A program made the position numbers and the translations under genes. 64,000 bases of DNA from Candidatus Hydrothermales bacterium (GTDB taxonomy: Bacteria > Hydrothermota > Hydrothermia > Hydrothermales > JAJRUZ01): assembly GCA_039630575.1 (NCBI GenBank), contig JBCNUW010000001.1, positions 96,659-160,658 on the forward strand, written 5' to 3'. Below are positions 250-13,792 of the stretch, in pieces. Every line of letters starts with the position of its first letter. Position 1 is the first letter of the stretch. The notes under the pieces are model-generated. The model was not told the DNA's origin. It ran no database searches and saw only the letters and a list, made by a program, of their open reading frames with translations.

Positions 250-1134
250 ATGGGTAAAAGGATTCAAGAAGAGATAATAAAAAGTATCTTTTTTATATTT
301 GCTCTAATTTCTGTATTTACAACTTTTGGTATTATATTTGTTTTACTTTTCGAGACTATACAATTTTTTAAAGAGGTTTCAATTATAAGATTTTTAACTG
401 AAAAGGAATGGACACCACTATTTGCAGTTAAAAAATTTGGTATATGGCCTCTTTTATCTGGTACATTTTTAACGTCTTTAATAGCTATTCTTATTTCTTT
501 TCCAATGGGTCTTTCCATAGCAATCTTTGTAAGTGAGTATATGCCATTTAAATTAAAAGCAATTATTAAACCTATTATTGAGATTCTTGCTAGTATACCC
601 ACGGTGGTATATGGTTATTTTGCTCTTTTATTTGTCACACCACTTTTGAAGAAAATAATACCTTCAATTTCTGGGTTTAATGCACTTTCTCCTGGTATTG
701 TGCTTGGAATTATGATAATACCAACAGTTGCATCCATAAGTGAAGACTCACTTTCTTTAATTCCGAGAAGTTTGAGAGAGGCATCCTATGCGCTTGGTGC
801 AACTAAACTTGAGACAGTGTTTAAAGTTGTTTTACCTGCTGCCTCTTCTGGAATTTTATCAGCAGTAATTCTTGGATTTTCCAGAGCAATAGGTGAAACA
901 ATGATAGTAACAATAGCAGCAGGACAAAGACCTATACTGACACTTAACCCTCTTATTCCAATTGAAACAATAACTGCTTATATTGTACAGGTTTCTCTTG
1001 GAGATACGCCTACAGGATCTTTGGAATATAAAACAATATTTGCAGTTGGTATGGTTTTATTTTCTATAACTTTTACTTTCAACATTATAAGTCATAATTT
1101 AAGGATGAAGTTTATAAAATCCTTTAAATTATGA
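250..1134 (+). CDS. pstC: Phosphate ABC transporter permease PstC
   Basis: [12 protein letters not shown] and [13 protein letters not shown] motifs; operon context. Confidence 0.95.
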
Positions 1135-2000
1135 AAGATGTTAAAGAGTTAATTTTTAAGAGAAAAAAAAGGGAGAAATTATTTATTGTTCTGTCACTTT
1201 TCTTTATAACCTTTGCATTAATGTCACTTTTGCTTTTAATAGTTAGTATTTTAGTTGATGGTTACTCTGTTATAAGTATTAAGTTTTTGACGAGTTACCC
1301 TTCAAGAAAGCCTGAAGAAGCTGGGATATTATCAGCTCTAGTTGGCTCAGTTTACGTTCTTGTTATTATGATTTTATTTATTGTTCCAATTGGAATTGGA
1401 GCAGCTATATATTTAGAGGAATTTGCTCCCAAAAATACCCTTACACATTTTATAGAGATAAACATTGTGAACCTTGCAGGTGTTCCCTCCATTATATATG
1501 GACTTCTTGGACTTGAGATTTTTGTAAGGTTTTTTGGTCTTGGAAGGTCTATACTTGCTGGATCTTTAACACTTTCTCTTTTGGTATTACCTAGTGTTAT
1601 AATTGCTACTCGAGAAGCGATAAAACTTGTTCCCTACTCAATAAGAGAAGCTAGTTTGGCTTTAGGTGCTACCAAATGGCAGACAGTGCGACATCAAGTT
1701 CTACCAGTTGCTTTACCGGGAATTCTTACTGGTATAATACTTGCTGTTTCAAGAGCTATAGGAGAGACAGCTCCACTTATAACAATTGGAGCTCTTACAT
1801 ATATTGCTTTTTTACCTACAACACCACTTTCACCCTTTACTGTGCTCCCTATTCAAATATTTAACTGGATTTCAAGACCGCAAAAAATGTTTCATAAAAA
1901 TGCTGCTGGAGCAATAATCATTTTACTTTTTTTAACATTTATGTTAAACTTAACAGCAATAATTTTAAGAAATTATTATAAAAGTAAATATAGACTATAA
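1131..2000 (+). CDS. pstA: Phosphate ABC transporter permease PstA
   Basis: [14 protein letters not shown] and [10 protein letters not shown] motifs. Confidence 0.95.
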
Positions 2001-2002
2001 AA

Positions 2003-2755
2003 ATGGCAGTGATAAAAACAGAAAATTTGAATGTTTATTTTGGTGAAAATCATGTTTTAAAAAACATAAATATAGAAATACCTGAAAAGAAAATAACAGC
2101 TATAATGGGACCCTCAGGTTGTGGAAAATCAACCCTTTTGAGATGTTTTAACAGAATGAACGATCTTATTGATAACTTCGTTTTGCAGGGTAAAGTTATA
2201 TTTAATGGAAAAAATATTTATGAAAATAGTACTGAACCTTCAGAAATAAGAACAAAGATTGGTATGGTTTTTCAGAAACCAAATCCTTTTCCAAAATCAA
2301 TTTATGAGAATGTTGCCTTTGGACCAAAAATTTTAGGTATAAAGGATAAATCAAAACTTGATTATATAGTAGAGGAGTCTTTGAAAAAAGCTTACCTTTG
2401 GGAAGAGGTAAAGGATAAACTTAGAGAAAATGCTTTAAATCTCTCAGGAGGTCAACAGCAGAGATTATGTATAGCAAGAGCATTGGCAGTTGGACCGGAA
2501 GTTCTGTTACTTGATGAGCCAACATCTGCACTTGATCCTGTTGCATCAAAGAAAATAGAGGAATTACTTGAGGAATTAAAAAAGAACTTAACTATAGTGA
2601 TTGTTACTCACAACCCATCTCAAGCATCAAGAATTTCTGATTATACAGCTTTTTTATATTTAGGAGAGCTGATAGAATTTAATACAACAGACAAAATTTT
2701 TACTATTCCTAAACATCCAAAAACACAGGAATATTTAAGTGGAAAATTTGGATAA
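2003..2755 (+). CDS. pstB: Phosphate ABC transporter ATPase PstB
   Basis: [43 protein letters not shown]. Confidence 0.97.
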
Positions 2756-2772
2756 AATAGGAGAAATAGAAA

Positions 2773-3426
2773 ATGTTTGAGGAAAAACTAAATGAATTAA
2801 AAAGAGAAATAATAAATTATGCTTTCCTTGTAGAAAGGATGATTGAAAAAAGTATAAACGGACTTCTTGAAAAAAAGGAAGAGCTTTTAAGAGAAGTAAT
2901 TGAAAGAGATGAAATTGAGGCAAATGATTTTGAAATCAAAATTGATGAGCTTGCTATTACTACTATAGCAAAATACGAACCTAAAGGTAAGGATCTTAGG
3001 GAAGTTCTTATGATACTTAAAATAAACAACGACCTTGAAAGAATGGCAGACCATGCTGTGAATATTTGTGAAAGCGCTTTATTTTTAATCGAAAGACCAA
3101 AGGTAAAACCCTTTACAGAAATAAATAAAATAGCTAACGAAACAATAAAGATGTTAAAAGACAGTATAGACTCTTTTATAGAAGAAAACACTAAAAAAGC
3201 AAAAAGTGTTTGTGAAAGAGATTATATTGTTGACGATTTAAATAGCTCCATATCTAAAGAGTTAATCTCATATATGATGTGTGATCCAGGAGCAATAGAA
3301 AGATGTATGCATATAATGAGAATCTCAAATAATATTGAGAGAATAGCAGATCTATCAACTAATATTAGTGAGGATGTAATCTTTATGGTTGAAGGTAAAG
3401 TTATAAAACATCATAGGGAAGAATAA
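2773..3426 (+). CDS. phoU: Phosphate signalling protein PhoU
   Basis: Duplicated DLERMADHAVNI / NIERIADLSTNI motifs. Confidence 0.95.
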   Translation: MFEEKLNELKREIINYAFLVERMIEKSINGLLEKKEELLREVIERDEIEANDFEIKIDELAITTIAKYEPKGKDLREVLMILKINNDLERMADHAVNICESALFLIERPKVKPFTEINKIANETIKMLKDSIDSFIEENTKKAKSVCERDYIVDDLNSSISKELISYMMCDPGAIERCMHIMRISNNIERIADLSTNISEDVIFMVEGKVIKHHREE

Positions 3427-3427
3427 C

Positions 3428-3456
3428 TTGAAAATTAAATTATAAAATCTTATAAT
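3428..3456 (+). promoter_or_regulatory. sigma70-type promoter
   Basis: TTGAAA-17 bp-TATAAT upstream of the 3511 gene. Confidence 0.7.
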
Positions 3457-3469
3457 TAAAATAAAATTT

Positions 3470-3482
3470 GGGTTCAATTCCC
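3470..3482 (+). promoter_or_regulatory. T-arm-like leader hairpin, copy 1
   Basis: GGG-TTCAATT-CCC, 28 nt before ATG 3511. Confidence 0.6.
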
Positions 3483-3510
3483 CTTAAAAAAATTATAAAG
3501 GAGTAATATT

Positions 3511-3780
3511 ATGAGGAAATTTTTGTTGCTAATCCCAATTTTTGGGATATTCCTTGTTTCCTGTCAGCTTCCACCTGAAATAAAAGAATTACCGGAAAAG
3601 ATGAACGAGTTTAAAACTAAAGTAGAGGAACTTGAGGGTAAGGTTTCTGATCTTGAGTCTAAAATTGAGGAGCTAAAAACAAAGATAGAAGAGATGGAAA
3701 AGGCAAAATCACAACCTGAAGTTAAAAAGGAAAGCAGCGGAACACAAACACCTAAAGTTCCACCCATAAGAAAAAAATAA
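3511..3780 (+). CDS. Small coiled-coil lipoprotein
   Basis: Lipobox-like LVSC, heptad repeats VEELEGKVSDLESKIEELKTKIEEM, AGGAG RBS. Confidence 0.75.
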   Translation: MRKFLLLIPIFGIFLVSCQLPPEIKELPEKMNEFKTKVEELEGKVSDLESKIEELKTKIEEMEKAKSQPEVKKESSGTQTPKVPPIRKK

Positions 3781-3792
3781 AGAGGTTTTAAG

Positions 3793-4569
3793 ATGAAAAA
3801 AATTTTATTAATTTCAGGTTTGTTTTTAATACTTTTAGTTTTTATAGGTTGTCCTGAAGATGAAGAATTGCCAACACCTAATGCAAGAATTGCAAGCATT
3901 TTAGAGCAGGGTGAAGGAATAAGACTCGAATGGGATCCTGTTGAAGGTGCTGATGGTTACAGAGTTAGAGTTGACGACGAATTGAAGTATGAAGGAACAA
4001 GTACATATTTTGAGTGGAAAACACCTGCATTAAAAATAGAAGTTTATGCCTATGCTGGGGATAAGGAATCTACCCCAAGAGTTTTTGACTTCACACCTGT
4101 TTCAAGAACTTCTCAAGAATTATGGGAAAGAAGCGCAGCTGGTAACAGTGGCTATGGCTGGAATGCAGATGGAACAGGTTCAAGCTACTCTTTGGGAGAT
4201 GCTGCAAATCATTCAAGAATAGATTTTTATTTGGATGACTTTACTGCTGGGACTGTAGACGTTTCAAATATTTACTTGGTAAGTCCTCATCACGGGGGAT
4301 TTAACGATACTGAAACAGGTTTTGCTGTTGAAACAGGTGGAACAGGTAATATAGCACCAGCTCCTGGAACCTATGATACTCCCAGACCACAAAGTCCAAT
4401 AGTATCTGGAGGAACTTACTTTTTATGGATAGATCACAGTAATAACGAGTGGACTAGTGATGATAATTTTGTTAAAATAAAGATAATTTCTATAGGCAAT
4501 GATGGAAAGGTTGTATTTGACTATTGGTTCCAGAAACAAGGTGGACTTCGCTGGCTAAAGACAAATTAA
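3793..4569 (+). CDS. Lipoprotein, FnIII-like N-domain plus possible HmuY-like C-domain
   Basis: FIGC lipobox; IRLEWDPVEGADGYRV (FnIII-like); FVKIKIISI...VVFDYWFQ end resembles HmuY-like folds. Confidence 0.55.
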   Translation: MKKILLISGLFLILLVFIGCPEDEELPTPNARIASILEQGEGIRLEWDPVEGADGYRVRVDDELKYEGTSTYFEWKTPALKIEVYAYAGDKESTPRVFDFTPVSRTSQELWERSAAGNSGYGWNADGTGSSYSLGDAANHSRIDFYLDDFTAGTVDVSNIYLVSPHHGGFNDTETGFAVETGGTGNIAPAPGTYDTPRPQSPIVSGGTYFLWIDHSNNEWTSDDNFVKIKIISIGNDGKVVFDYWFQKQGGLRWLKTN

Positions 4570-4592
4570 ATTAAATTAAATTAAATTAAATT
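4563..4592. repeat. (AAATT)6 microsatellite
   Basis: Six perfect pentamer copies spanning the stop codon, before the terminator. Confidence 0.8.
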
Positions 4593-4593
4593 T

Positions 4594-4622
4594 CCCCCCC
4601 AATATTTGGGGGGGTTTTTTTT
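4594..4622 (+). terminator. Rho-independent terminator
   Basis: CCCCCCCAA-TAT-TTGGGGGGG followed by T8. Confidence 0.85.
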
Positions 4623-4666
4623 ATAATAAGTTGAATATAAAATTAAATTTTTCCTAACATAAACTC

Positions 4667-5677
4667 ATGAGAAAAACTTTATCAATTATTTCTTTTTTAT
4701 TTTTGTTTTGTGTAAAAGAGCCTCACGAAGTAGGATGGTTCTTAACATTTAAAATACCTGGAAAAATGAAAAAGACTACTGTAAAAGAGGAAGTTCAAAA
4801 AAGCGATAAGTATAGAGTGATTGCAGATTCAGTTTTTAATGTTCAAAAGAAAATTCATTCAAATTTGAACTATTCTGGTTATGCTATTATAACTAGTGAT
4901 ACATTAAGGAGATTATTACCAAAGTTTATTGATACAACGCAAAGTGAATTTGGATCCTTAATTTTTCTTATTTATGGCGGGGCAAAGTATAAAGGAAATG
5001 TAATTACATCACCTTGCACATTAAAAACAAAAATAATTTCCTATTTTTGGAACGATAATATTGATACCTTTGGGATTTTTAAAATTGACAGCATGAAAAC
5101 TTCTGTTACTGGAAACTTTAAAATAACACACAGAATACCTTTTAACGATTTTCCTGCTGGACCCCATCTTTTTATAATTATTCCACAGATTTTAACAGGT
5201 AGTGCAAATTTTGATACAATTGAAACCTTCAAAGAGGGTCTTTTTGGAGCTAAAGTTTTAGGAGATAATATCATAACATTCTTGGACACAATAAAAAATG
5301 AAAGTGAAGACTTGAGAGAATTAGCAAGGCAAAATAGAATTGAAAAGATTTTCTTACATGCCGATGTTACACATAGCTTTCCTGTGAGGTTTTTTCTATC
5401 TATTATGGTGTTTTCAAACAGCGACACCCTTATGCCTATCAATAATCTTCCTTTTAAAAGCGCACCTAAAAACCAAGAGGGTGTATCAACTGATAGTACT
5501 AAATTTTCCATTGAAATAGATCTTTCTAAAGATGTTGTAGATCTATCAAAAGATTCTTTAATATTTTATAAAGCTTTTGCAATTGTAGACAGTCAGGGTA
5601 ATGCTTATATAAAACCTGAGGATTTCATAAAATTAAAAGGATATCTCGGAGTAAAACTCTATACATTGGAGCGATAA
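4667..5677 (+). CDS. Hypothetical exported/lipoprotein, beta-rich
   Basis: 336 aa ORF with N-terminal hydrophobic stretch ending FLFC; coupled to the OmpA-domain gene. Confidence 0.6.
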   Translation: MRKTLSIISFLFLFCVKEPHEVGWFLTFKIPGKMKKTTVKEEVQKSDKYRVIADSVFNVQKKIHSNLNYSGYAIITSDTLRRLLPKFIDTTQSEFGSLIFLIYGGAKYKGNVITSPCTLKTKIISYFWNDNIDTFGIFKIDSMKTSVTGNFKITHRIPFNDFPAGPHLFIIIPQILTGSANFDTIETFKEGLFGAKVLGDNIITFLDTIKNESEDLRELARQNRIEKIFLHADVTHSFPVRFFLSIMVFSNSDTLMPINNLPFKSAPKNQEGVSTDSTKFSIEIDLSKDVVDLSKDSLIFYKAFAIVDSQGNAYIKPEDFIKLKGYLGVKLYTLER

Positions 5678-5679
5678 AC

Positions 5680-8022
5680 ATGATTAAATTAGTTTTGTTT
5701 TTATATCCCCTCTATTTTACTCCTGGGGAAAATTTTTTCCCAAGTTATCCATTTGCGAGTCAGAATATTTACTTTAATCCAGCCCTTATAGGTTCCGAAT
5801 TTAACCCAAGTTTTACCTTTTCCTTTTTATCAACCAACCTTGCTCTTACAAATAATGGATTATCTATATCACTATACAACGATATTATGTCTGCTCATGG
5901 TGATTCTATTACAAAATCTTTAAAAGAGAGCTTCTTTAAAAACATCGGGTCCTCATGGAAAACAAATCACCTTTCATATTTTTCACCCTTTTCATTTTCT
6001 TTAGGAAGATTTGCTTTTGGTTTAAGGGCTATCCAGGGTTTAATTTTGATGTTACCCGAACCATGGCTAAGGATTCTACTCTACGGAAATGAGCTCGATA
6101 AAACCTATTTTGCAAACAAAGACAATACTGCATTTCAAGTTTTAAACTTAATTGAAACAAGAATAGGTTCCGGTTATGGTATTTTTTTAGATAAAGAGGA
6201 AAAGTACAGGTTAATTTATGGTTTAAATTTTGCCTTCTATATATCAGGACCTTACGTTGAGCTAAATGAAGTTAATGTAAGATTAAATTCTTACTATGAC
6301 GGAATAACTGGGGATGACTATATTAAATTAAAGTTAGACACAACCTTTCTAAACTTTGGATATTCAATAGATTTAGGTTTTGGTTTAGAGTATAAAAAAA
6401 TCCTAAATTTTTCTCTAGGTTTAAACAATATAATATCAAATATAAACTTTTCAAAAGGTATTACCTATATCCACTATGGAAACCTTGACACTTTTTATTT
6501 AGGGGAGGGAATAGATTTTGATACTTTGTATACTGACAAATTAGATACCATACCAGGTGCCTTCAGTGTAAAACTTCCTCTTATTTTGAAATTTTCAACC
6601 TTCTATAGACATCCAGATGATAAGTATAGATTATTTTTAATATGGGAGCAGGGATTCAAATATACAGCATTTTCAACAAAAACACCGAGGATATCTCTTG
6701 GAGGGGAATATTTTGTTCATCCAAGAATACCATTAAGATTTGGTTTTGTTTTTGGAGGCTACGAGGGGTTAAGTCTATCTTTAGGCGCAGGTATAGTAAG
6801 CAGAGAAATTTCCTCAATAAATATTGGAATTTCACAACATAGGGGAATACTATTAGGTTCAAGGGGTATCTCATTCTCATTTTTAACGGAATTTCATTCC
6901 ACATTTAAAGGAAAATTTAAATTTAAAATAATGGATTCTCTTACAAATAAACCTATAGCTAATGCTATACTTAAACTAACAGATAAAAACAATAAAAAAG
7001 TTTTTGAAGGTCAAAGTGATGTAAACGGTGAAATAAGAGGAGAAATTAAAAAAGGCGAATATAAATTTGAAGTCGAAGCTGAGAATTATTACTCTAAGTC
7101 AGGATTTGTGGAAATAAAACAAGGTAGAGAAAAAGAAGAAAAAATTTTACTTAAAACAAGATTTGGTTATCTTACATTATATGTTAAAGATAGAGAGACT
7201 CTTAAGCCATTAGGTAATGTAGATGTTACTGTTCAGTACAAAGAAAAAACAACAAAAGTAAAAACTGATTCATCAGGTATATTAAAGCTTAGACTGGAAA
7301 GAGGAGAGTATAAATTTAAGTTTGAACATCCTGACTATATGGTGAGGACAGAAAGCTACAAGGTTGAATCTGGAGTTCAAAAGGAAGTTGAAGTTTTCTT
7401 AGCAACTCGTTTTGGTACTGTTAAGGGTAAAGTTTACAATGCTCAGACACTTGAACCCCTTAAAGGTCAACTGGAAATTTATCCTGAAGGTAAGGACAGT
7501 GTTATAGAAAAGTTAGAAACAACTTTAGATGGTAGCTATAATGTAAAACTCTCTGAAGGGATATACAAATTCAAAGTAAAAGTTTCAAATTATATTCCTC
7601 AAGAAGCTTATGTTCAAGTAATTGGAGGGAAAGAATCTCTAAAAGACTTTGCTATGCTTAAGGAAAAAATGGTTTTTACTTTTAGAAACATCTATTTTGA
7701 TTTTAATAAGGCTACAATAAGACCTGAATCTTACCCAGTTTTAGATTCTATTGCCCTTATGTTAAAGGATAACCCAACTATAATTGTTGAAATAGGCGGA
7801 CATACAGACGAGAGAGGAACAAGATCCTATAACAAAAATTTAAGTCAGCAAAGAGCCGAATCTGTCAGAAATTACCTTTTTGAAAAACATGGTATAGAGC
7901 TTTTAAGACTCATTCCTTTAGGATACGGAGAAGATTTACCTATTATAAAGAATGCTAAAACAGAGGAAGAGCATCAATTAAACAGAAGAGTAGAATTTAA
8001 AATTTTAGGAGAAAAGAGATGA
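5680..8022 (+). CDS. Outer-membrane barrel plus carboxypeptidase-regulatory-like repeats plus OmpA-C domain
   Basis: C-terminal IYFDFNKATIRPES, GHTD, NLSQQRAESV, NRRVEF (OmpA). Three repeats resembling D..T.KPI.NA. N-terminal NPA motif and amphipathic strands (DUF5723-like, tentative). Confidence 0.8.
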   Translation: MIKLVLFLYPLYFTPGENFFPSYPFASQNIYFNPALIGSEFNPSFTFSFLSTNLALTNNGLSISLYNDIMSAHGDSITKSLKESFFKNIGSSWKTNHLSYFSPFSFSLGRFAFGLRAIQGLILMLPEPWLRILLYGNELDKTYFANKDNTAFQVLNLIETRIGSGYGIFLDKEEKYRLIYGLNFAFYISGPYVELNEVNVRLNSYYDGITGDDYIKLKLDTTFLNFGYSIDLGFGLEYKKILNFSLGLNNIISNINFSKGITYIHYGNLDTFYLGEGIDFDTLYTDKLDTIPGAFSVKLPLILKFSTFYRHPDDKYRLFLIWEQGFKYTAFSTKTPRISLGGEYFVHPRIPLRFGFVFGGYEGLSLSLGAGIVSREISSINIGISQHRGILLGSRGISFSFLTEFHSTFKGKFKFKIMDSLTNKPIANAILKLTDKNNKKVFEGQSDVNGEIRGEIKKGEYKFEVEAENYYSKSGFVEIKQGREKEEKILLKTRFGYLTLYVKDRETLKPLGNVDVTVQYKEKTTKVKTDSSGILKLRLERGEYKFKFEHPDYMVRTESYKVESGVQKEVEVFLATRFGTVKGKVYNAQTLEPLKGQLEIYPEGKDSVIEKLETTLDGSYNVKLSEGIYKFKVKVSNYIPQEAYVQVIGGKESLKDFAMLKEKMVFTFRNIYFDFNKATIRPESYPVLDSIALMLKDNPTIIVEIGGHTDERGTRSYNKNLSQQRAESVRNYLFEKHGIELLRLIPLGYGEDLPIIKNAKTEEEHQLNRRVEFKILGEKR

Positions 8023-10947
8023 TGGGTTAAAAAGGTTATTATTTTCAAAACCCAAGAGATTTTCCCTTTTTTGGATTCTGCTTTTTATATTTTCAAAAAT
8101 ATTAAGGTATCTTTCAAATAAATATTTAATTACTTCGTAGCTATCTATCTTCTTAAAGATCTTTATAAATTTTCTTATAACAATAAGATGTAAAAAAGGA
8201 ATGGGATATTTAAAGATCATTTCAAGAAACTTTTCTAATTCTTCAAAAGTTAGCCTTTTATCTTTTCTAACAAGCTTTAAGGATTGAATATATAGATTTT
8301 GCAATACCAAGTTTTTAGTTAAATCTTCAATTTCAGTTATACTAAAACTATTTATCAAACTTTCATCCTCTGACCCAAGAATAAGTAAAAAAAAGATGTA
8401 AGGGTCTTTTAAATAGGATAAGTTAATATATTTTGTTTCTATTTTATTTCCTTCATATAAAGTTTTAATTGAGTTGAAATAAAAAGAATAAAAAGAGTTA
8501 TAAAATCTCTGTGAAAAGGAAATCCCAATTTTATTGGACAATTTGAATAAATTTTCATTTTTAAAAATTAAACCTAAAAAACACTTTATCTTTTCAGATT
8601 CCATAACATTTTCATGGTTCATTTCCATAAAAGAAGATTTTTCAGCCTCCATTGATGCTTCTAAAGAATCTTCGAAGTTTCCGGTCCAGAATAGAAAGTC
8701 TGACAAATTTATTTTAAATTCTGAGTTAAAATAACCCTTTTTCAAAAGATCTCTTTCAGACCTTTTTAAGTATAAAAGAGCATCAAAAAATTTTCCTTCT
8801 CTCTTTGCGATTTCAGAATAGAGCAAATTTATTTTAGCTAAAGTTACTTCATTCATAACTTTAACATCCTGAAGAAATTTTCTGGCAGACTCAAAAATTC
8901 CCTTTTCAATATAGGATTTAGCTAAACTGAAATTAATTTCGTTCCATCTTGAGTCATTTTTGTCAGTCAAAAGTAAAGCTTTGTGTAAATTCGAAATAGC
9001 CTTTTCAAAATCTTTTGATAAATAAGAGTATATACCCTTAAGATAAAGATATTCTCCCATTTCAAGAGGTCTTATCTTGTGATTTTTTAGTACAACTTCT
9101 TCAATTTTTTCAAATATGAAAAAAGGGATAAAACCTGTGCCCTCCTTTAGGAATTTGTCTAAAGTCTTTAAGGAATATTCCCAAGCTATGTCATATTTTT
9201 TTGCTTTTAGTGATTGTATAAATAAAAAGTATGGATTATTTTCAGCCCAATCTGTATATTTAAGGGTATCTACAATCTCTTCGTGTAATTTGTTTTTAAT
9301 AGTGTCAGGTATAGAGTTATAAATAACTTCTCTAAGAAGAGGATTAATGAAATGTATAGTATTATTTTCTATTCTTAAAATATCCTTAGAAATAAGACCA
9401 ACTAAGCTTTTTTCTATTTTTTCTGAAAAATGTTTCGAAAGTGGAGAATCTAAATCTAACTCTACTATCAAGCTCAATATTTCAAGTAAATCTTTTTCAT
9501 ATATTGTTAATTCGTTAACTTGTGAAAGGGCAAAGCTCATTAGAGATAAAGGAAGCTCTTCTTTTCCTTCAAGATCTTTACCTTTCAACTTTAAACTTTT
9601 CAAGTACTGTGCTATAAATAGTGGTATACCACCAGTGATTGTTGCAATTTTATAAATTGTTTCAAACTTAACATTCGGATAATATTTAGAAACTAATTCC
9701 ATTACCTCATCTACATTTAGTGGTTTTAGATCAATCTTATAAATGTTTGTTAAATCTAAATTAACTGGAAGGGTTCTTGCAGTTAAAATTATAAATGTAC
9801 TATCAAGTTTATTTTTGATAAAGTTAATTAACTCAATCGAAAATGAATCAGCCCTATCTATGTCATCGAAAATTATAATTAACTTTCCTCTTTTTTTTGT
9901 TATTATTCTTAAAAAATCTAAAAAAAGATACTTTATTCTTTCACTTATATCTTTTTCTTCAGATGTTGAAGTTAATACATCCAAAAAAAATTCTATATAT
10001 CTTTTCAGAAATTTAAACTCTTCCTTACTCATTGAATTTACAAGAAAAGTTTTTAATGGATAAAATGGTTCATCTGTATAAACTTCACACCCCCTTAGTT
10101 TTATTATGAAATTTTTTTCCTTTAAATTTTTAACATAATTATCAAGAAAAAAGGTTTTCCCAACTCCTGCCTCACCTGTTAAAATAACAGATCTACTCTT
10201 TCCGGATTCTAAATCCTTTAAAAATTTATCAAATAACTCCTTTGCATCTTTTCTCTCAACAAAAGGAACATCAAAAATTCCAGGTTCATACATCTTGCTT
10301 CCTGAAATCAATGTATAAATTTCCATTTTTTCTGTCTTTCCTTTTAACCTAATATTGCCCAAATATTCAAATTCAAAAAATTCAAGTGAAGCTTCATATA
10401 TATCAAAAGAAACATATTTTTTATTTCCAAGATTAGTAGAGAGTCTTTGAGCAGTGTTAACACAGTCACCAAGCGCAGTCAAAGACATTCCTTCTCCAGG
10501 TTCAACTTCACCAAAAAAAGACCATCCAGAAGATATACCAATTCCGTAATCACACATTTCAGAAAGCTCACTTTTAATTAAATTTTCTATCTTAAAGGAA
10601 AAGTTTAAAACTTTAAAAACTAAATCTCTTTCGAATTCGTTATGACCAAAGATAAAAAGACCACCTTCATGAAAATTAAACTTTTCCAAAAAAGCGTCAT
10701 AGGATCTGGCTAATCTTTCTACTTCGTATAAAAAATTTGTAAATTTGTAAACTAAATTTAAATCTATTTTAACTTTCCATTTTAAAGTTACAAAAAGAGA
10801 AATAATATATTTTTTTCTTAAAATAAACGGGATTTTTGTTGGTCTTGTATCTTTAAGTTTTTGTCCACAATTAGTACAAAAATTGTATGAGTTTTTTAAA
10901 TTTACATTACATCTCTTACACTGAACTATTTCTATAGTACCATGCAT
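8005..10947 (-). CDS. Zn-ribbon / class III cyclase-like / STAND NTPase / TPR protein
   Basis: CKRC..CTNC; GIGISSG..TALGDCVNTAQRL..LKGK; Walker A GEAGVGKT, Walker B IIIFDD, GGIPLF; helical repeats at the C-terminus. Confidence 0.85.
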   Translation of the reverse strand: MHGTIEIVQCKRCNVNLKNSYNFCTNCGQKLKDTRPTKIPFILRKKYIISLFVTLKWKVKIDLNLVYKFTNFLYEVERLARSYDAFLEKFNFHEGGLFIFGHNEFERDLVFKVLNFSFKIENLIKSELSEMCDYGIGISSGWSFFGEVEPGEGMSLTALGDCVNTAQRLSTNLGNKKYVSFDIYEASLEFFEFEYLGNIRLKGKTEKMEIYTLISGSKMYEPGIFDVPFVERKDAKELFDKFLKDLESGKSRSVILTGEAGVGKTFFLDNYVKNLKEKNFIIKLRGCEVYTDEPFYPLKTFLVNSMSKEEFKFLKRYIEFFLDVLTSTSEEKDISERIKYLFLDFLRIITKKRGKLIIIFDDIDRADSFSIELINFIKNKLDSTFIILTARTLPVNLDLTNIYKIDLKPLNVDEVMELVSKYYPNVKFETIYKIATITGGIPLFIAQYLKSLKLKGKDLEGKEELPLSLMSFALSQVNELTIYEKDLLEILSLIVELDLDSPLSKHFSEKIEKSLVGLISKDILRIENNTIHFINPLLREVIYNSIPDTIKNKLHEEIVDTLKYTDWAENNPYFLFIQSLKAKKYDIAWEYSLKTLDKFLKEGTGFIPFFIFEKIEEVVLKNHKIRPLEMGEYLYLKGIYSYLSKDFEKAISNLHKALLLTDKNDSRWNEINFSLAKSYIEKGIFESARKFLQDVKVMNEVTLAKINLLYSEIAKREGKFFDALLYLKRSERDLLKKGYFNSEFKINLSDFLFWTGNFEDSLEASMEAEKSSFMEMNHENVMESEKIKCFLGLIFKNENLFKLSNKIGISFSQRFYNSFYSFYFNSIKTLYEGNKIETKYINLSYLKDPYIFFLLILGSEDESLINSFSITEIEDLTKNLVLQNLYIQSLKLVRKDKRLTFEELEKFLEMIFKYPIPFLHLIVIRKFIKIFKKIDSYEVIKYLFERYLNIFENIKSRIQKRENLLGFENNNLFNPSSLFS

Positions 10948-10950
10948 GTT

Positions 10951-13185
10951 TTAAAGTCTACGCATAGCCATAGAGGCAGCAAGTTTAACTTGTCCATCTG
11001 GATCATTTAAAAGTTTTTTCAAAAATTCCATAACCTTTTCAGACTTATGCCTTGATAAAATTCTAACAACTTCAACTCTTATCTCAGATGGAAACTTTGG
11101 TTTTTTTAAGAAAGTTTTGTCAAAAAGAATTTTTTCAATTATTGGATAAGCTTTATCAGGTATGTGTTTGATCAAAAAATTTATTGAAGGTATGATAAAT
11201 TCTCTTGATTCATCTTTATCAAGGGTATTTTTAATAAATTGATAAATTAAATCAACACTTTTAAATGTCCCAATTTTTAAAAGAGTTCTCAAACATTCAA
11301 GTTTTACATCCTTATTCTGTGTTTCCAAATAGACTTCTAATATATCATCTTCAACAGATGAAACATTATATTTTGTAAAGGTCTTTAGCACCTCTAATTT
11401 TGTACTGTCTTCTCCCATTTTCAATATTTTAATTAAAAGAGGTATACCTTCCTCATCTTTAACTTCTCCTAGAATAATTGCTACATCACGAAGATTTACA
11501 AATGATTTACTTTCAAGATCTCTATAAAATTCCCTTCTATACTCAGCTGGAAAATGAGACAGAATTTTAGCTATCCTCTTTTTTATTGTAATATTTTCCA
11601 TTTCAGGAAAAATCTCCTTAAGAGCTACAAATCCCTCTTTTCCCGCAGATAAAAATGCTTCTTCTATTTCCTTCTCTGTCTCATCATCCCATAATTGAGT
11701 TAAAAGTACTCTTGTTGAAAATTGAGTACCAATTTTCCCAAGTGCCCTTATAGCAACTTTTTTCTTTGATCCCGAATCTAATAAATCTCTAAATGCCTTC
11801 TGTATATCTTCAACAATCAATAAAAGATCTTTTTCTTTAGCAACCATAACAATCTTTTCTAGTCCTTCAATATATGAGAAAATCACAGCAGGATGTTCCT
11901 CTTCAAAAACTTTTATTTTCATTAAATTTATTATTTTTTCAACAGATCCTAGCTTTTCGGCTCTTAAAAAAGTAATTGCAAAAGAAATTAAAGCATCAAT
12001 TGCAGAAATCCTTTCATTTTCATTCTCATTTGTGAGTTTTTCTATAATGGGCTGAAGGAAAGATTCCATCTCTGAAGCAGCTATTCCACCTTCAAGCTCT
12101 CTTTCTAAAAACTTCAATTTTTTCTCTCCTGTTATTACAAGCTTTTTTTCTCTTGCTATCCTTTCAAGTAATTCAGTTTCTTTGTCTTCATGTGATTTTT
12201 TAGTTGTTGTATAAATTTTTCTTTTTTGGAGTATGTCCTTTAACATATCTGGCAACTCGCTTTCTCCTTCCTTTAATCCCGAAAAAAGCAATACAAGTTC
12301 TCTATCATCCATTTCATCAAGAATTTTTCTTATTGACTCCGCTATCTCTCTATACTTTTCAGATTCCTCTATAAACCTTATTTTAAGAGCTGGAGATAAA
12401 ATTTTTAGTATATGTGTAATAACAAGAGAAAAATTATGTGAACCATCTTCTCCGTATTTTTCTATTAAATAGTGAGCAACAATTTTTAAAGCTGAAATTA
12501 AGTCCTTAACCTTTAAACTATCAAATTCTTTTTTTAAATTTAGACCCATCATATCTAAAAAAATATCTTTTACTAACTCCTCCTTTTCAATATCTTGTAA
12601 CTTATTATATTCTCTTAAAAAACCGTCAAATTTATCTTGAACCTCTTTACTTAATATTTTCTCTTCTTCTTTTTTAATTTCCGAAACAACTTTAGATAAA
12701 TGATCCTTTTCTTCTAAAGTCAAATCTAATTTTAATTCTCTTTCTGTAGAACTTAATTTGAACTTTACCTCATTTAATCTAATCCTTTCAACATTTCTCT
12801 GCAGAAGTAGTTCAGATGGGTCTTTAACCTCTAAGAACTTTTTTAAAGGTAAAGTAAAAATTTCAAAGAAAATTCTTAGATCATCCTGAATTACATCCCT
12901 GTCAATCGAAATACTTTCAATTTTAAGTCTAAAGAAATGTTTCGCCATAGATTGAATAGCTGGAATTTTGCTTATATCAATCCTTGTATCTTCAAAAAGT
13001 ATGATATTTTCAAAGAAATAAACGGATATTGTGTTATACTTTAATGGGAATTTTTTAATTATCTCGAGAACCTGCTCAGCTGCTTTATTGAAAGCAGGGT
13101 GCCCTGCTGGGTACATCTTTGAATATGTTAACCCTACTCCTATCTGTTTTAAAAGTTCAATTACTAAGGATTCTATCTGTAACAT
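10951..13185 (-). CDS. HEAT-repeat protein with N-terminal YPxGHP domain
   Basis: MYPAGHP near the N-terminus; HEAT-like repeats (AIRALGKIG, AIILGEVKDEEGIPLLIKIL, LLNDPDGQVKLAASMAM). Confidence 0.75.
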   Translation of the reverse strand: MLQIESLVIELLKQIGVGLTYSKMYPAGHPAFNKAAEQVLEIIKKFPLKYNTISVYFFENIILFEDTRIDISKIPAIQSMAKHFFRLKIESISIDRDVIQDDLRIFFEIFTLPLKKFLEVKDPSELLLQRNVERIRLNEVKFKLSSTERELKLDLTLEEKDHLSKVVSEIKKEEEKILSKEVQDKFDGFLREYNKLQDIEKEELVKDIFLDMMGLNLKKEFDSLKVKDLISALKIVAHYLIEKYGEDGSHNFSLVITHILKILSPALKIRFIEESEKYREIAESIRKILDEMDDRELVLLFSGLKEGESELPDMLKDILQKRKIYTTTKKSHEDKETELLERIAREKKLVITGEKKLKFLERELEGGIAASEMESFLQPIIEKLTNENENERISAIDALISFAITFLRAEKLGSVEKIINLMKIKVFEEEHPAVIFSYIEGLEKIVMVAKEKDLLLIVEDIQKAFRDLLDSGSKKKVAIRALGKIGTQFSTRVLLTQLWDDETEKEIEEAFLSAGKEGFVALKEIFPEMENITIKKRIAKILSHFPAEYRREFYRDLESKSFVNLRDVAIILGEVKDEEGIPLLIKILKMGEDSTKLEVLKTFTKYNVSSVEDDILEVYLETQNKDVKLECLRTLLKIGTFKSVDLIYQFIKNTLDKDESREFIIPSINFLIKHIPDKAYPIIEKILFDKTFLKKPKFPSEIRVEVVRILSRHKSEKVMEFLKKLLNDPDGQVKLAASMAMRRL

Positions 13186-13792
13186 TTAAAGTTTCCTCCT
13201 TTAAAAGATAAAAATCTATATTTTGAACTACTTTTTTCTCATATAAGTTTTTTGGAAAAACTTTCTCAATTTCACCAAGTAAAACTATCTCATCTTTACT
13301 TATTAATGATTTTAAATAATTAATCATACTAATCAATTCAGAAGAGATAATTATATAGGATTTTTCTCCTAATCTTAGAGGATAAACAAGGCATCTCTCA
13401 TATATACCTATCATCTTCATTCTAATATCTTTTCTTATAACATCTGAATTAAAAAATTCTCTAACATCAATCAAAAAATTTATAAATTCATTAATATCGA
13501 GACTTTTACCAAGTCCAAATATAATCTCAATTTCATCACCTATGTATTGATTTACATAACCTCCATTTTTTTCAGCTATCATTTTTAAATTTGAAAATAA
13601 AAGAGAAAGATTAGATCTTAATTCAAAAAGTTCAATTCTCTCAGTTAAATTGGTAAAACCTATAATATCCATCCTGAAAACAAGAACATCTACTTCTATA
13701 GGTCCTTTCTTGATATAAAATCCGCAACTCTGACAAAAATTTCCATTACTATCAATTCGAGAACCACACTTTAGACAAATCTCACTTAGCAT
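13157..13792 (-). CDS. Zn-ribbon plus class III nucleotide cyclase half-domain
   Basis: CLKC..CQSC; FRMDIIGFT (D42) and YIGDEI (D86); C-terminal half degenerate. Confidence 0.75.
   Translation of the reverse strand: MLSEICLKCGSRIDSNGNFCQSCGFYIKKGPIEVDVLVFRMDIIGFTNLTERIELFELRSNLSLLFSNLKMIAEKNGGYVNQYIGDEIEIIFGLGKSLDINEFINFLIDVREFFNSDVIRKDIRMKMIGIYERCLVYPLRLGEKSYIIISSELISMINYLKSLISKDEIVLLGEIEKVFPKNLYEKKVVQNIDFYLLKEETLNVTDRILSN

Follow-up and report, generated by a model that had tools for sequence, protein, structure and literature searches.

Reciprocal half-sites encoded by two genes of a WOR-3 operon point to a heterodimeric class III adenylyl cyclase with a STAND NTPase domain

Class III cyclases of bacteria are described in PMC9552081 (in part) as homodimers with two productive sites, and the same text places the division into C1 and C2 halves after a duplication and fusion in eukaryotes. 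In heterodimers such as the mammalian membrane adenylyl cyclases and soluble guanylyl cyclase, each monomer supplies residues that are absent from its partner (PMC2576301, in part). Heterodimeric rhodopsin cyclases are reported from chytrids, and bicarbonate-activated enzymes resembling mammalian soluble adenylyl cyclase (sAC, ADCY10) occur in Chloroflexus (PMC11006738, in part). The titles and abstract openings that we searched, in which subscription literature was thinly covered, do not describe any heterodimeric class III cyclase that bacteria naturally encode in two genes; PMC2447327 may treat complementation among degenerate mycobacterial cyclases. Here we compare with these systems a three-gene locus in which the residues of a class III active site are divided between two proteins.

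The window analyzed is a stretch of 64,000 nucleotides of contig JBCNUW010000001.1 from a Candidatus Hydrothermales bacterium. As a sequence-only reading of this DNA had reported, three open reading frames lie on its minus strand and encode proteins of 211, 744 and 980 amino acids (Table 1); that reading had taken them for a C1-like protein, a HEAT protein and a C2-like STAND NTPase. The first two genes overlap by 29 nt, the second and third are separated by 3 nt, and the 3' end of the third overlaps a convergent OmpA-domain gene by 18 nt. The operon neighbors are housekeeping genes, and inheritance appears to be vertical. The reading frames of the cyclase genes are intact, and an assembly artefact was ruled out by the presence of the same frames in public-run contigs and in orthologues. 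Contigs from both of two public runs, which belong to one study and may stem from the source sample, span all 30 bins with two single-letter differences and no indels. A promoter and terminator scan gave a signal no stronger than in shuffled sequences, and a search of PADLOC-DB for anti-phage STAND/cyclase systems (Avs, Pycsar) returned marginal, unrelated matches only.

Table 1. Positions in the window of the three genes and of the domains and residues discussed in the text.
Feature	Position	Strand	Remark
211-aa C1-like gene	13157..13792	-	zinc ribbon and an entire class III cyclase fold including the dimerisation arm; carries only the metal-binding half-site
Double-CxxC zinc ribbon of small protein (C6, C9, C20, C23)	13724..13777	-	invariant in 27/27; DZR match E 4e-4, below Pfam's cut-off
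D42, first metal-binding Asp	13667..13669	-	27/27, 20/20, 49/49 (sets overlap)
D86, second metal-binding Asp, then family-specific invariant Glu87	13535..13537	-	conserved across homologue sets
744-aa HEAT gene	10951..13185	-	N-terminal alpha/beta domain, then helical and HEAT repeats
Unnamed N-terminal domain of HEAT protein (about residues 1-145)	12751..13185	-	shared with HD-domain proteins and GGDEF-STAND-HEAT fusions
980-aa STAND gene	8005..10947	-	zinc ribbon, C2-like cyclase domain, STAND NTPase, degenerate TPR-like tail
Double-CxxC zinc ribbon of STAND protein (C10, C13, C24, C27)	10867..10920	-	conserved to 90% or more across 28 aligned rows
C2-like cyclase domain with K89, T157, N164, R168, K202; without both metal Asp	10303..10818	-	residue alignment
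STAND-type NTPase domain (AAA_16, residues 229-377)	9817..10263	-	E 2.8e-14; Walker A and acidic Walker B intact

The AlphaFold model of the small protein comprises a whole cyclase domain (pLDDT 83) in which the dimerisation arm typical of the class III homology domain is present; its best Foldseek match is CyaB of Pseudomonas aeruginosa (E 1.5e-11), and Cya2 and the C1 domain of AC5 match as well. The protein aligns to CyaB across the Asp-bearing half, and its D42 and D86, 44 residues apart and already noted as metal-binding Asp residues, fall on the metal Asp pair of that enzyme. The absence of the substrate Lys and of the N-x3-R motif was likewise borne out, with Q82 at the Lys place and Ser and Tyr at the Asn and Arg places, and the Thr at the second base-contact place is also lacking. 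The 980-aa protein, in turn, has T54 in place of the first metal Asp and H93 in place of the second, and it retains the Lys, Thr, Asn, Arg and Lys (K89, T157, N164, R168 and K202), both as the sequence-only reading had it. A one-residue insertion beside H93 and a Glu at position 94, which were absent from that reading, were also observed. Neither protein therefore holds in one chain the full residue set of a homodimeric bacterial cyclase. The zinc ribbon recorded earlier on both halves was found on each, with the cysteines listed in Table 1. By its motifs the 980-aa protein is a STAND NTPase, and Walker A, acidic Walker B and the GxP motif of the helical domain were present in 26 of 26 sequences, while TPR repeats are clear in its relatives and weak in this copy. 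Because the Walker motifs are intact, the STAND/TPR switch may be expected to control the cyclase.

The searches covered 61 relatives and 251 genomes of the phylum, and 47 loci were read fully or partly. The three-gene module occurs in families throughout the WOR-3 phylum, with the two halves at a median pairwise identity of 25% and 29%. Both metal Asp residues were found in all 47 small proteins from genome loci and the Asn/Arg pair in none of them, although in two of them the Arg place is occupied by Lys; a Lys, Arg or His stands on strand beta4 in 47/47. In an overlapping set of 49 database homologues, the Asp and the Gly-Asp-Glu were present in every one and the Asn/Arg motif in none. Among the STAND partners, Thr and Asn were found in 45/45, Arg in 44/45 (the other has Lys) and a basic beta7-beta8 residue in 45/45, so that the half-sites are reciprocal, as in C1/C2-type enzymes, in all 47 small proteins and all 45 partners. 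In a control set of 37 other WOR-3 cyclase domains, 35 have all six catalytic residues, and set against the Asn/Arg pair in 0 of 47 small proteins, the split exceeds chance. These kin are not independent of each other: the split is a single ancestral event, with two loss events only. A scan of a genome collection with the family alignment gave five loci, all five from the WOR-3 group, as are the named database homologues, and a metagenome scan with one protein gave one near-identical locus.

The two halves were also compared with known enzymes by profile. The small-protein profile found its best stretch within human sAC and AC5 in the C1 half and the STAND-partner profile in the C2 half, and both matched CyaB strongly (E 4e-29 and 1e-33, respectively). 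The comparison with mammalian C1/C2 that had been suggested as a check places the small protein on the C1 side and the STAND domain on the C2 side. The gene order is C1-HEAT-STAND in the host's order and STAND-C1-HEAT in the 41 loci of other classes.

The C2 domain (residues 38-222) and the C1 domain (residues 28-202) were modeled together with ATP and two Mg, alongside three controls. The heterodimer model reached an ipSAE of 0.82, while the best of the three controls reached 0.01; the mark applied is one that 116 of 157 solved pairs reach, against 2 of 215 mismatched ones, and these figures hold only roughly for the present case. The runs shared at least 88% of contacts, with a partner pLDDT of at least 86. 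In the model, the half-sites meet: N164, R168 and K202/G203 are in contact with F46/T47, the neighbors of D42, and T157 is in contact with Y83/G85, the neighbors of D86, as expected from the account of the active site in PMC2576301. The score may, on the other hand, be owed to the resemblance of the pair to class III dimers of solved structure, thus reflecting likeness and not binding, and close cousins of a true partner pass this test too. In the mechanism that we propose, the small protein would supply the two metal-holding Asp residues, the phosphate-binding helix and the basic residue on strand beta4, and the C2-like domain would bring the Lys and Thr that contact the base, the Asn and Arg that act in catalysis, and the beta7-beta8 Lys. 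If the two pair head to tail, one working site and one degenerate pocket would result, and homodimers of either window protein, missing half of the residues, would be expected to be inactive. The STAND/TPR switch would expose or orient the C2 domain, so that output would need both a STAND signal and the C1 protein, as in an AND gate. The interface in this scheme is a modeled one, and we infer catalysis by the pair.

The product of the window copy is most likely cAMP, because Lys and Thr (K89 and T157), instead of Glu and Cys, stand at the base-selecting places; this assignment from residues is not secure for the family as a whole. The substrate place of 44 STAND partners holds Lys in 21, Arg in 15 and another residue, including Asp and Glu, in 8, and such variation would suit a heterodimer that forms but is a nucleotide-binding pseudo-enzyme, or one whose product is cGMP or a cyclic pyrimidine; in this view it would sense NTPs and thereby regulate the STAND/HEAT complex. 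The one-residue insertion in the beta2-beta3 loop of every STAND partner and the invariant extra Glu of the C1 proteins point the same way, as does the finding that paralogous HEAT genes often (several of the distant paralogues) precede a GGDEF gene and a gene that is guaA-like by sequence likeness; non-catalytic cyclase folds exist, AdvA being one (bioRxiv 10.64898/2026.04.03.716176, in part). However, the most conserved positions are the transition-state Arg, the Asn and both metal Asp residues, which the chemistry needs and binding alone does not, the window copy has the adenine-type Lys and Thr, and AdvA lacks the arm and the catalytic residues, both of which are kept here. We consider a pseudo-enzyme or a product other than cAMP unlikely. 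The genome encodes five cNMP-binding ORFs and at least three complete cyclases, which could supply cAMP or cross-pair with the proteins described here.

To follow the three genes across genomes, orthologues of the HEAT gene were chosen as anchor regardless of the cyclases (49 matches above 170 bits). Both cyclase genes adjoin the HEAT gene in 46 of the 49, four of the STAND genes at these loci being cut by contig ends or, in G193, by a run of N; G005 has both cyclase genes on broken contigs, and in G002 and on contig G003:C154 the HEAT gene is kept and both cyclases are gone. At G003:C154, what remains of the small gene is a stretch of 20 codons (P0148) ahead of the HEAT gene, and behind the HEAT gene the STAND gene is reduced to its first and last codons, now joined. 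In G002, the region upstream leads directly to the start of the HEAT gene, and behind this gene the two ends of the STAND gene appear to have been brought together, this remnant being shorter and less certain than that of G003:C154. These two lineages each underwent two separate deletions flanking a retained HEAT gene, and we report the co-loss as a count of two events rather than as a statistic. No orthologue of either cyclase was found elsewhere in the G002 genome (95% complete), which retains complete cyclase paralogues, and no assembled locus among the 49 has just one of the two cyclases.

These losses also bear on the exclusiveness of the pairing. The first metal Asp is kept in 3 of 44 STAND partners (G211, G216 and G243, which keep both), and an Asp in register with the second, without its Gly, is present in 31 of 44 by a count made by eye, these partners being outside the host's order. 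Since many partners keep the second-Asp residue and three keep both, some may, by their residues, be active alone. Such counts, together with the complete paralogues in the same genome and the passing of the complex test by close cousins, favor a C1 protein that is a regulatory half-subunit binding complete cyclase-STAND paralogues too, with the STAND partner active as a homodimer in some lineages. The joint deletion that happened twice, with complete paralogues remaining in G002, argues against this, as do the lack of both Asp residues in the window's STAND partner and the lack of one-cyclase loci, and we regard a non-exclusive pairing of this kind as quite improbable.

With regard to origin, the STAND partners form one group among complete zinc-ribbon-cyclase-STAND proteins in two trees (SH-aLRT 94 and 90), and the small proteins form one group in the first tree (SH-aLRT 88), while their group in the second takes in the C1-like member of a second pair. 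Both trees are quick searches that carry long-branch warnings; the first left out fragments, and the second also left out G205, G001, G201, G037, G033, G129, G121, G097 and the 184-aa protein of G006. The pairwise identities measured for one half follow those of the other (correlation 0.93), which reflects shared descent only. The simplest reading would be duplication of a zinc-ribbon-cyclase-STAND-TPR gene, followed by reciprocal loss and truncation of one copy, and duplication is favored over fission of a tandem gene because both halves carry zinc ribbons; no tandem sAC-like relative was seen at 20 WOR-3 loci chosen in part because their long ORFs might encode tandems, and these loci gave 21 single domains, nearly all complete. 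The second reciprocal pair, at G000:C89, consists of a 1120-aa STAND protein without the Gly-Asp and a 559-aa TPR protein with both Asp residues and without Asn/Arg; G003 has this pair too, and G008 and G002 have parts of it. That the two genes are instead decaying or independently repurposed cyclase domains which share an operon and complement each other by coincidence might be argued from the long branches of the copies of the host's order and from the lack of a Pfam cyclase match for the window C2 domain among 25 of the 28 families listed, but with exactly reciprocal catalytic residues invariant at 25-29% identity across many families, intact reading frames, co-deletion and the interface model, this is very improbable and already largely refuted by the conservation. 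For the core of the sequence-only reading, an obligate C1/C2-type heterodimer, support comes from the reciprocal conservation seen throughout the phylum, from co-occurrence, from two independent double deletions and from the complex model, and from residues and model we think it probable that in the host lineage the pair is an obligate heterodimeric class III cyclase with one active site that makes cAMP.

The HEAT protein had been proposed as a scaffold or input for the pair. Its N-terminal domain gives a confident alpha/beta model (pLDDT above 90 over 134 residues) in which Y25, P26, H29 and P30 are invariant; it belongs to no Pfam family, has no Foldseek match at E 0.001, and its atlas feature matches are all below 0.9. 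Its best structural Z is 7.2, over a 51-residue helical hairpin, which indicates neither a known nor a new fold. The domain recurs in a 1220-aa GGDEF-STAND-HEAT protein of the same genome (E 1e-9), in P0030, which has the same architecture, and before the HD domain in P0104. At 20 loci of more distant HEAT paralogues, a class III cyclase stood alongside in none. Since the HEAT gene is retained where both cyclases are lost, its product is not a dedicated subunit, and the case for a dedicated scaffold or input is weakened; the link to cyclase-STAND proteins stands through the GGDEF-STAND-HEAT fusions, and the most likely role of the HEAT protein is that of a partner to cyclase-STAND signaling in general, able to act without this pair.

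An unfused bacterial C1/C2 pair would show that reciprocal loss of half-sites is possible without fusion, and the two proteins offer a small soluble system in which to study how a STAND NTPase controls a cyclase and a candidate natural two-component cAMP switch. The C-terminal region of full-length sAC is poorly understood, and a STAND-cyclase system is relevant to it. The locus also points to an unnamed signaling domain common to HEAT, HD-domain and GGDEF-STAND proteins. More tentatively, WOR-3 may have evolved, independently of animals and possibly twice (with the second pair at G000:C89), an adenylyl cyclase that is an obligate heterodimer of two gene products; in it the STAND switch and the free C1 protein would form an AND gate, a regulatory ligand pocket would lie at the degenerate site, and the HEAT protein, through its undescribed N-terminal domain, would couple cAMP to c-di-GMP signaling; this coupling is proposed because the same domain is found on HD-domain proteins and in GGDEF-STAND fusions. 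We would place this wider scheme below even chances.

Among described systems, the closest in domain order are the bacterial zinc-ribbon-cyclase-STAND-TPR proteins (AAA_16, with a weak TIGR03903 match), such as the complete paralogues G000:C22 and C16, which are arranged as in the 980-aa protein; 35 of the 37 WOR-3 domains of this kind have all six residues and can homodimerise, while the window pair splits these residues over two genes. Both halves find their best match, in sequence and in fold, in P. aeruginosa CyaB (PDB 3R5G), which, unlike the window pair, is homodimeric; each of its chains holds the complete residue set, and a dimer has two sites. The mammalian membrane adenylyl cyclases (C1a/C2a, PDB 1AZS/1CJK) and soluble guanylyl cyclase resemble the modeled pair in having one active and one non-functional site, and the alpha/beta guanylyl cyclase is also a two-gene heterodimer; in contrast to these, the pair is bacterial and soluble, has no membrane anchor or H-NOX domain, and has a STAND NTPase as its regulated domain, and its origin would be independent of theirs. 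In full-length sAC, the catalytic domains are followed by a P-loop and TPR region. Like sAC and the bacterial sAC-like tandem cyclases, the pair divides its catalytic residues between C1 and C2 and has Thr at the second base-contact place, with the small-protein profile falling on sAC C1 (residues 43-198) and the STAND-partner profile on sAC C2 (279-469). A small insertion occurs in both the sAC C2 and the STAND-partner C2 (for sAC, PMC11006738, in part). Unlike sAC, where C1 and C2 stand in tandem in one polypeptide, the halves are encoded by separate genes at every locus read, each with a zinc ribbon and with a HEAT gene in the operon, and both profiles score higher on the homodimeric CyaB than on sAC. 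On residues and model together, the operon would best be read as encoding a split version of the soluble adenylyl cyclase architecture.

In the sister family (loci L032, L033 and L044), the split-cyclase operon continues into cheW, cheA and cheC, together with one TPR and one DUF4388 gene, which suggests a link between the operon and a chemosensory-like system. The HEAT protein encoded by the operon has 879 aa in G001 and G004; in the window and in the relative G002 it lacks about 135 of these, owing to an internal loss behind the N-terminal domain, and in G005 it is divided between two ORFs. The GGDEF-STAND-HEAT fusion has relatives in G005, G003 and protein P0030. HEAT paralogue genes at L105-L114 and L116 are often directly upstream of a gene that we take to be guaA-like, followed in some loci by a GGDEF gene.

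Another reciprocal C1-like/C2-like pair was observed on contig C89 of the window's own genome (G000); the same pair is also present in G003:C251 and, in part, in G008:C63 and G002:C23. The 184-aa cyclase of G006:C4 keeps both Asp without Asn/Arg, and its gene is convergent with a cyclase-STAND gene ended by the contig edge; the two are a possible third pair. In one of the neighbouring genes of G248:C56, the first Asp is replaced by Asn, possibly an early stage of half-site loss. The G138:C62 protein is a candidate guanylyl cyclase. The broken gene of G000:C5, apparently with two tandem cyclase domains, looks like a pseudogene.

Coordinates of the features in the window and in other loci (genome:contig)
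Feature	Locus	Position
Glu87, directly after second metal Asp of 211-aa protein	window	13532-13534
HEAT protein	window	10951-13185
GGDEF-STAND protein, 1220 aa, fused to unnamed domain and HEAT repeats	L091 (G000:C1)	6372-10034
Zinc-ribbon C2-like STAND-TPR protein, 1120 aa	L037 (G000:C89)	5069-8431
C1-like TPR protein, 559 aa; gene overlaps 1120-aa gene	L037 (G000:C89)	8424-10103
C1-like cyclase, 184 aa	L050 (G006:C4)	2545-3099
Two neighbouring cyclase-STAND genes	L139 (G248:C56)	514-4140 and 4199-7813
Cyclase-STAND gene, Glu at substrate place, otherwise complete	L145 (G138:C62)	319-3813
Cyclase-STAND-TPR gene, broken into many short frames	L038 (G000:C5)	about 4300-7800

Glu87 was invariant across all small proteins seen (the 211-aa C1-like protein and its orthologues), and in this residue they differ from typical class III cyclases.
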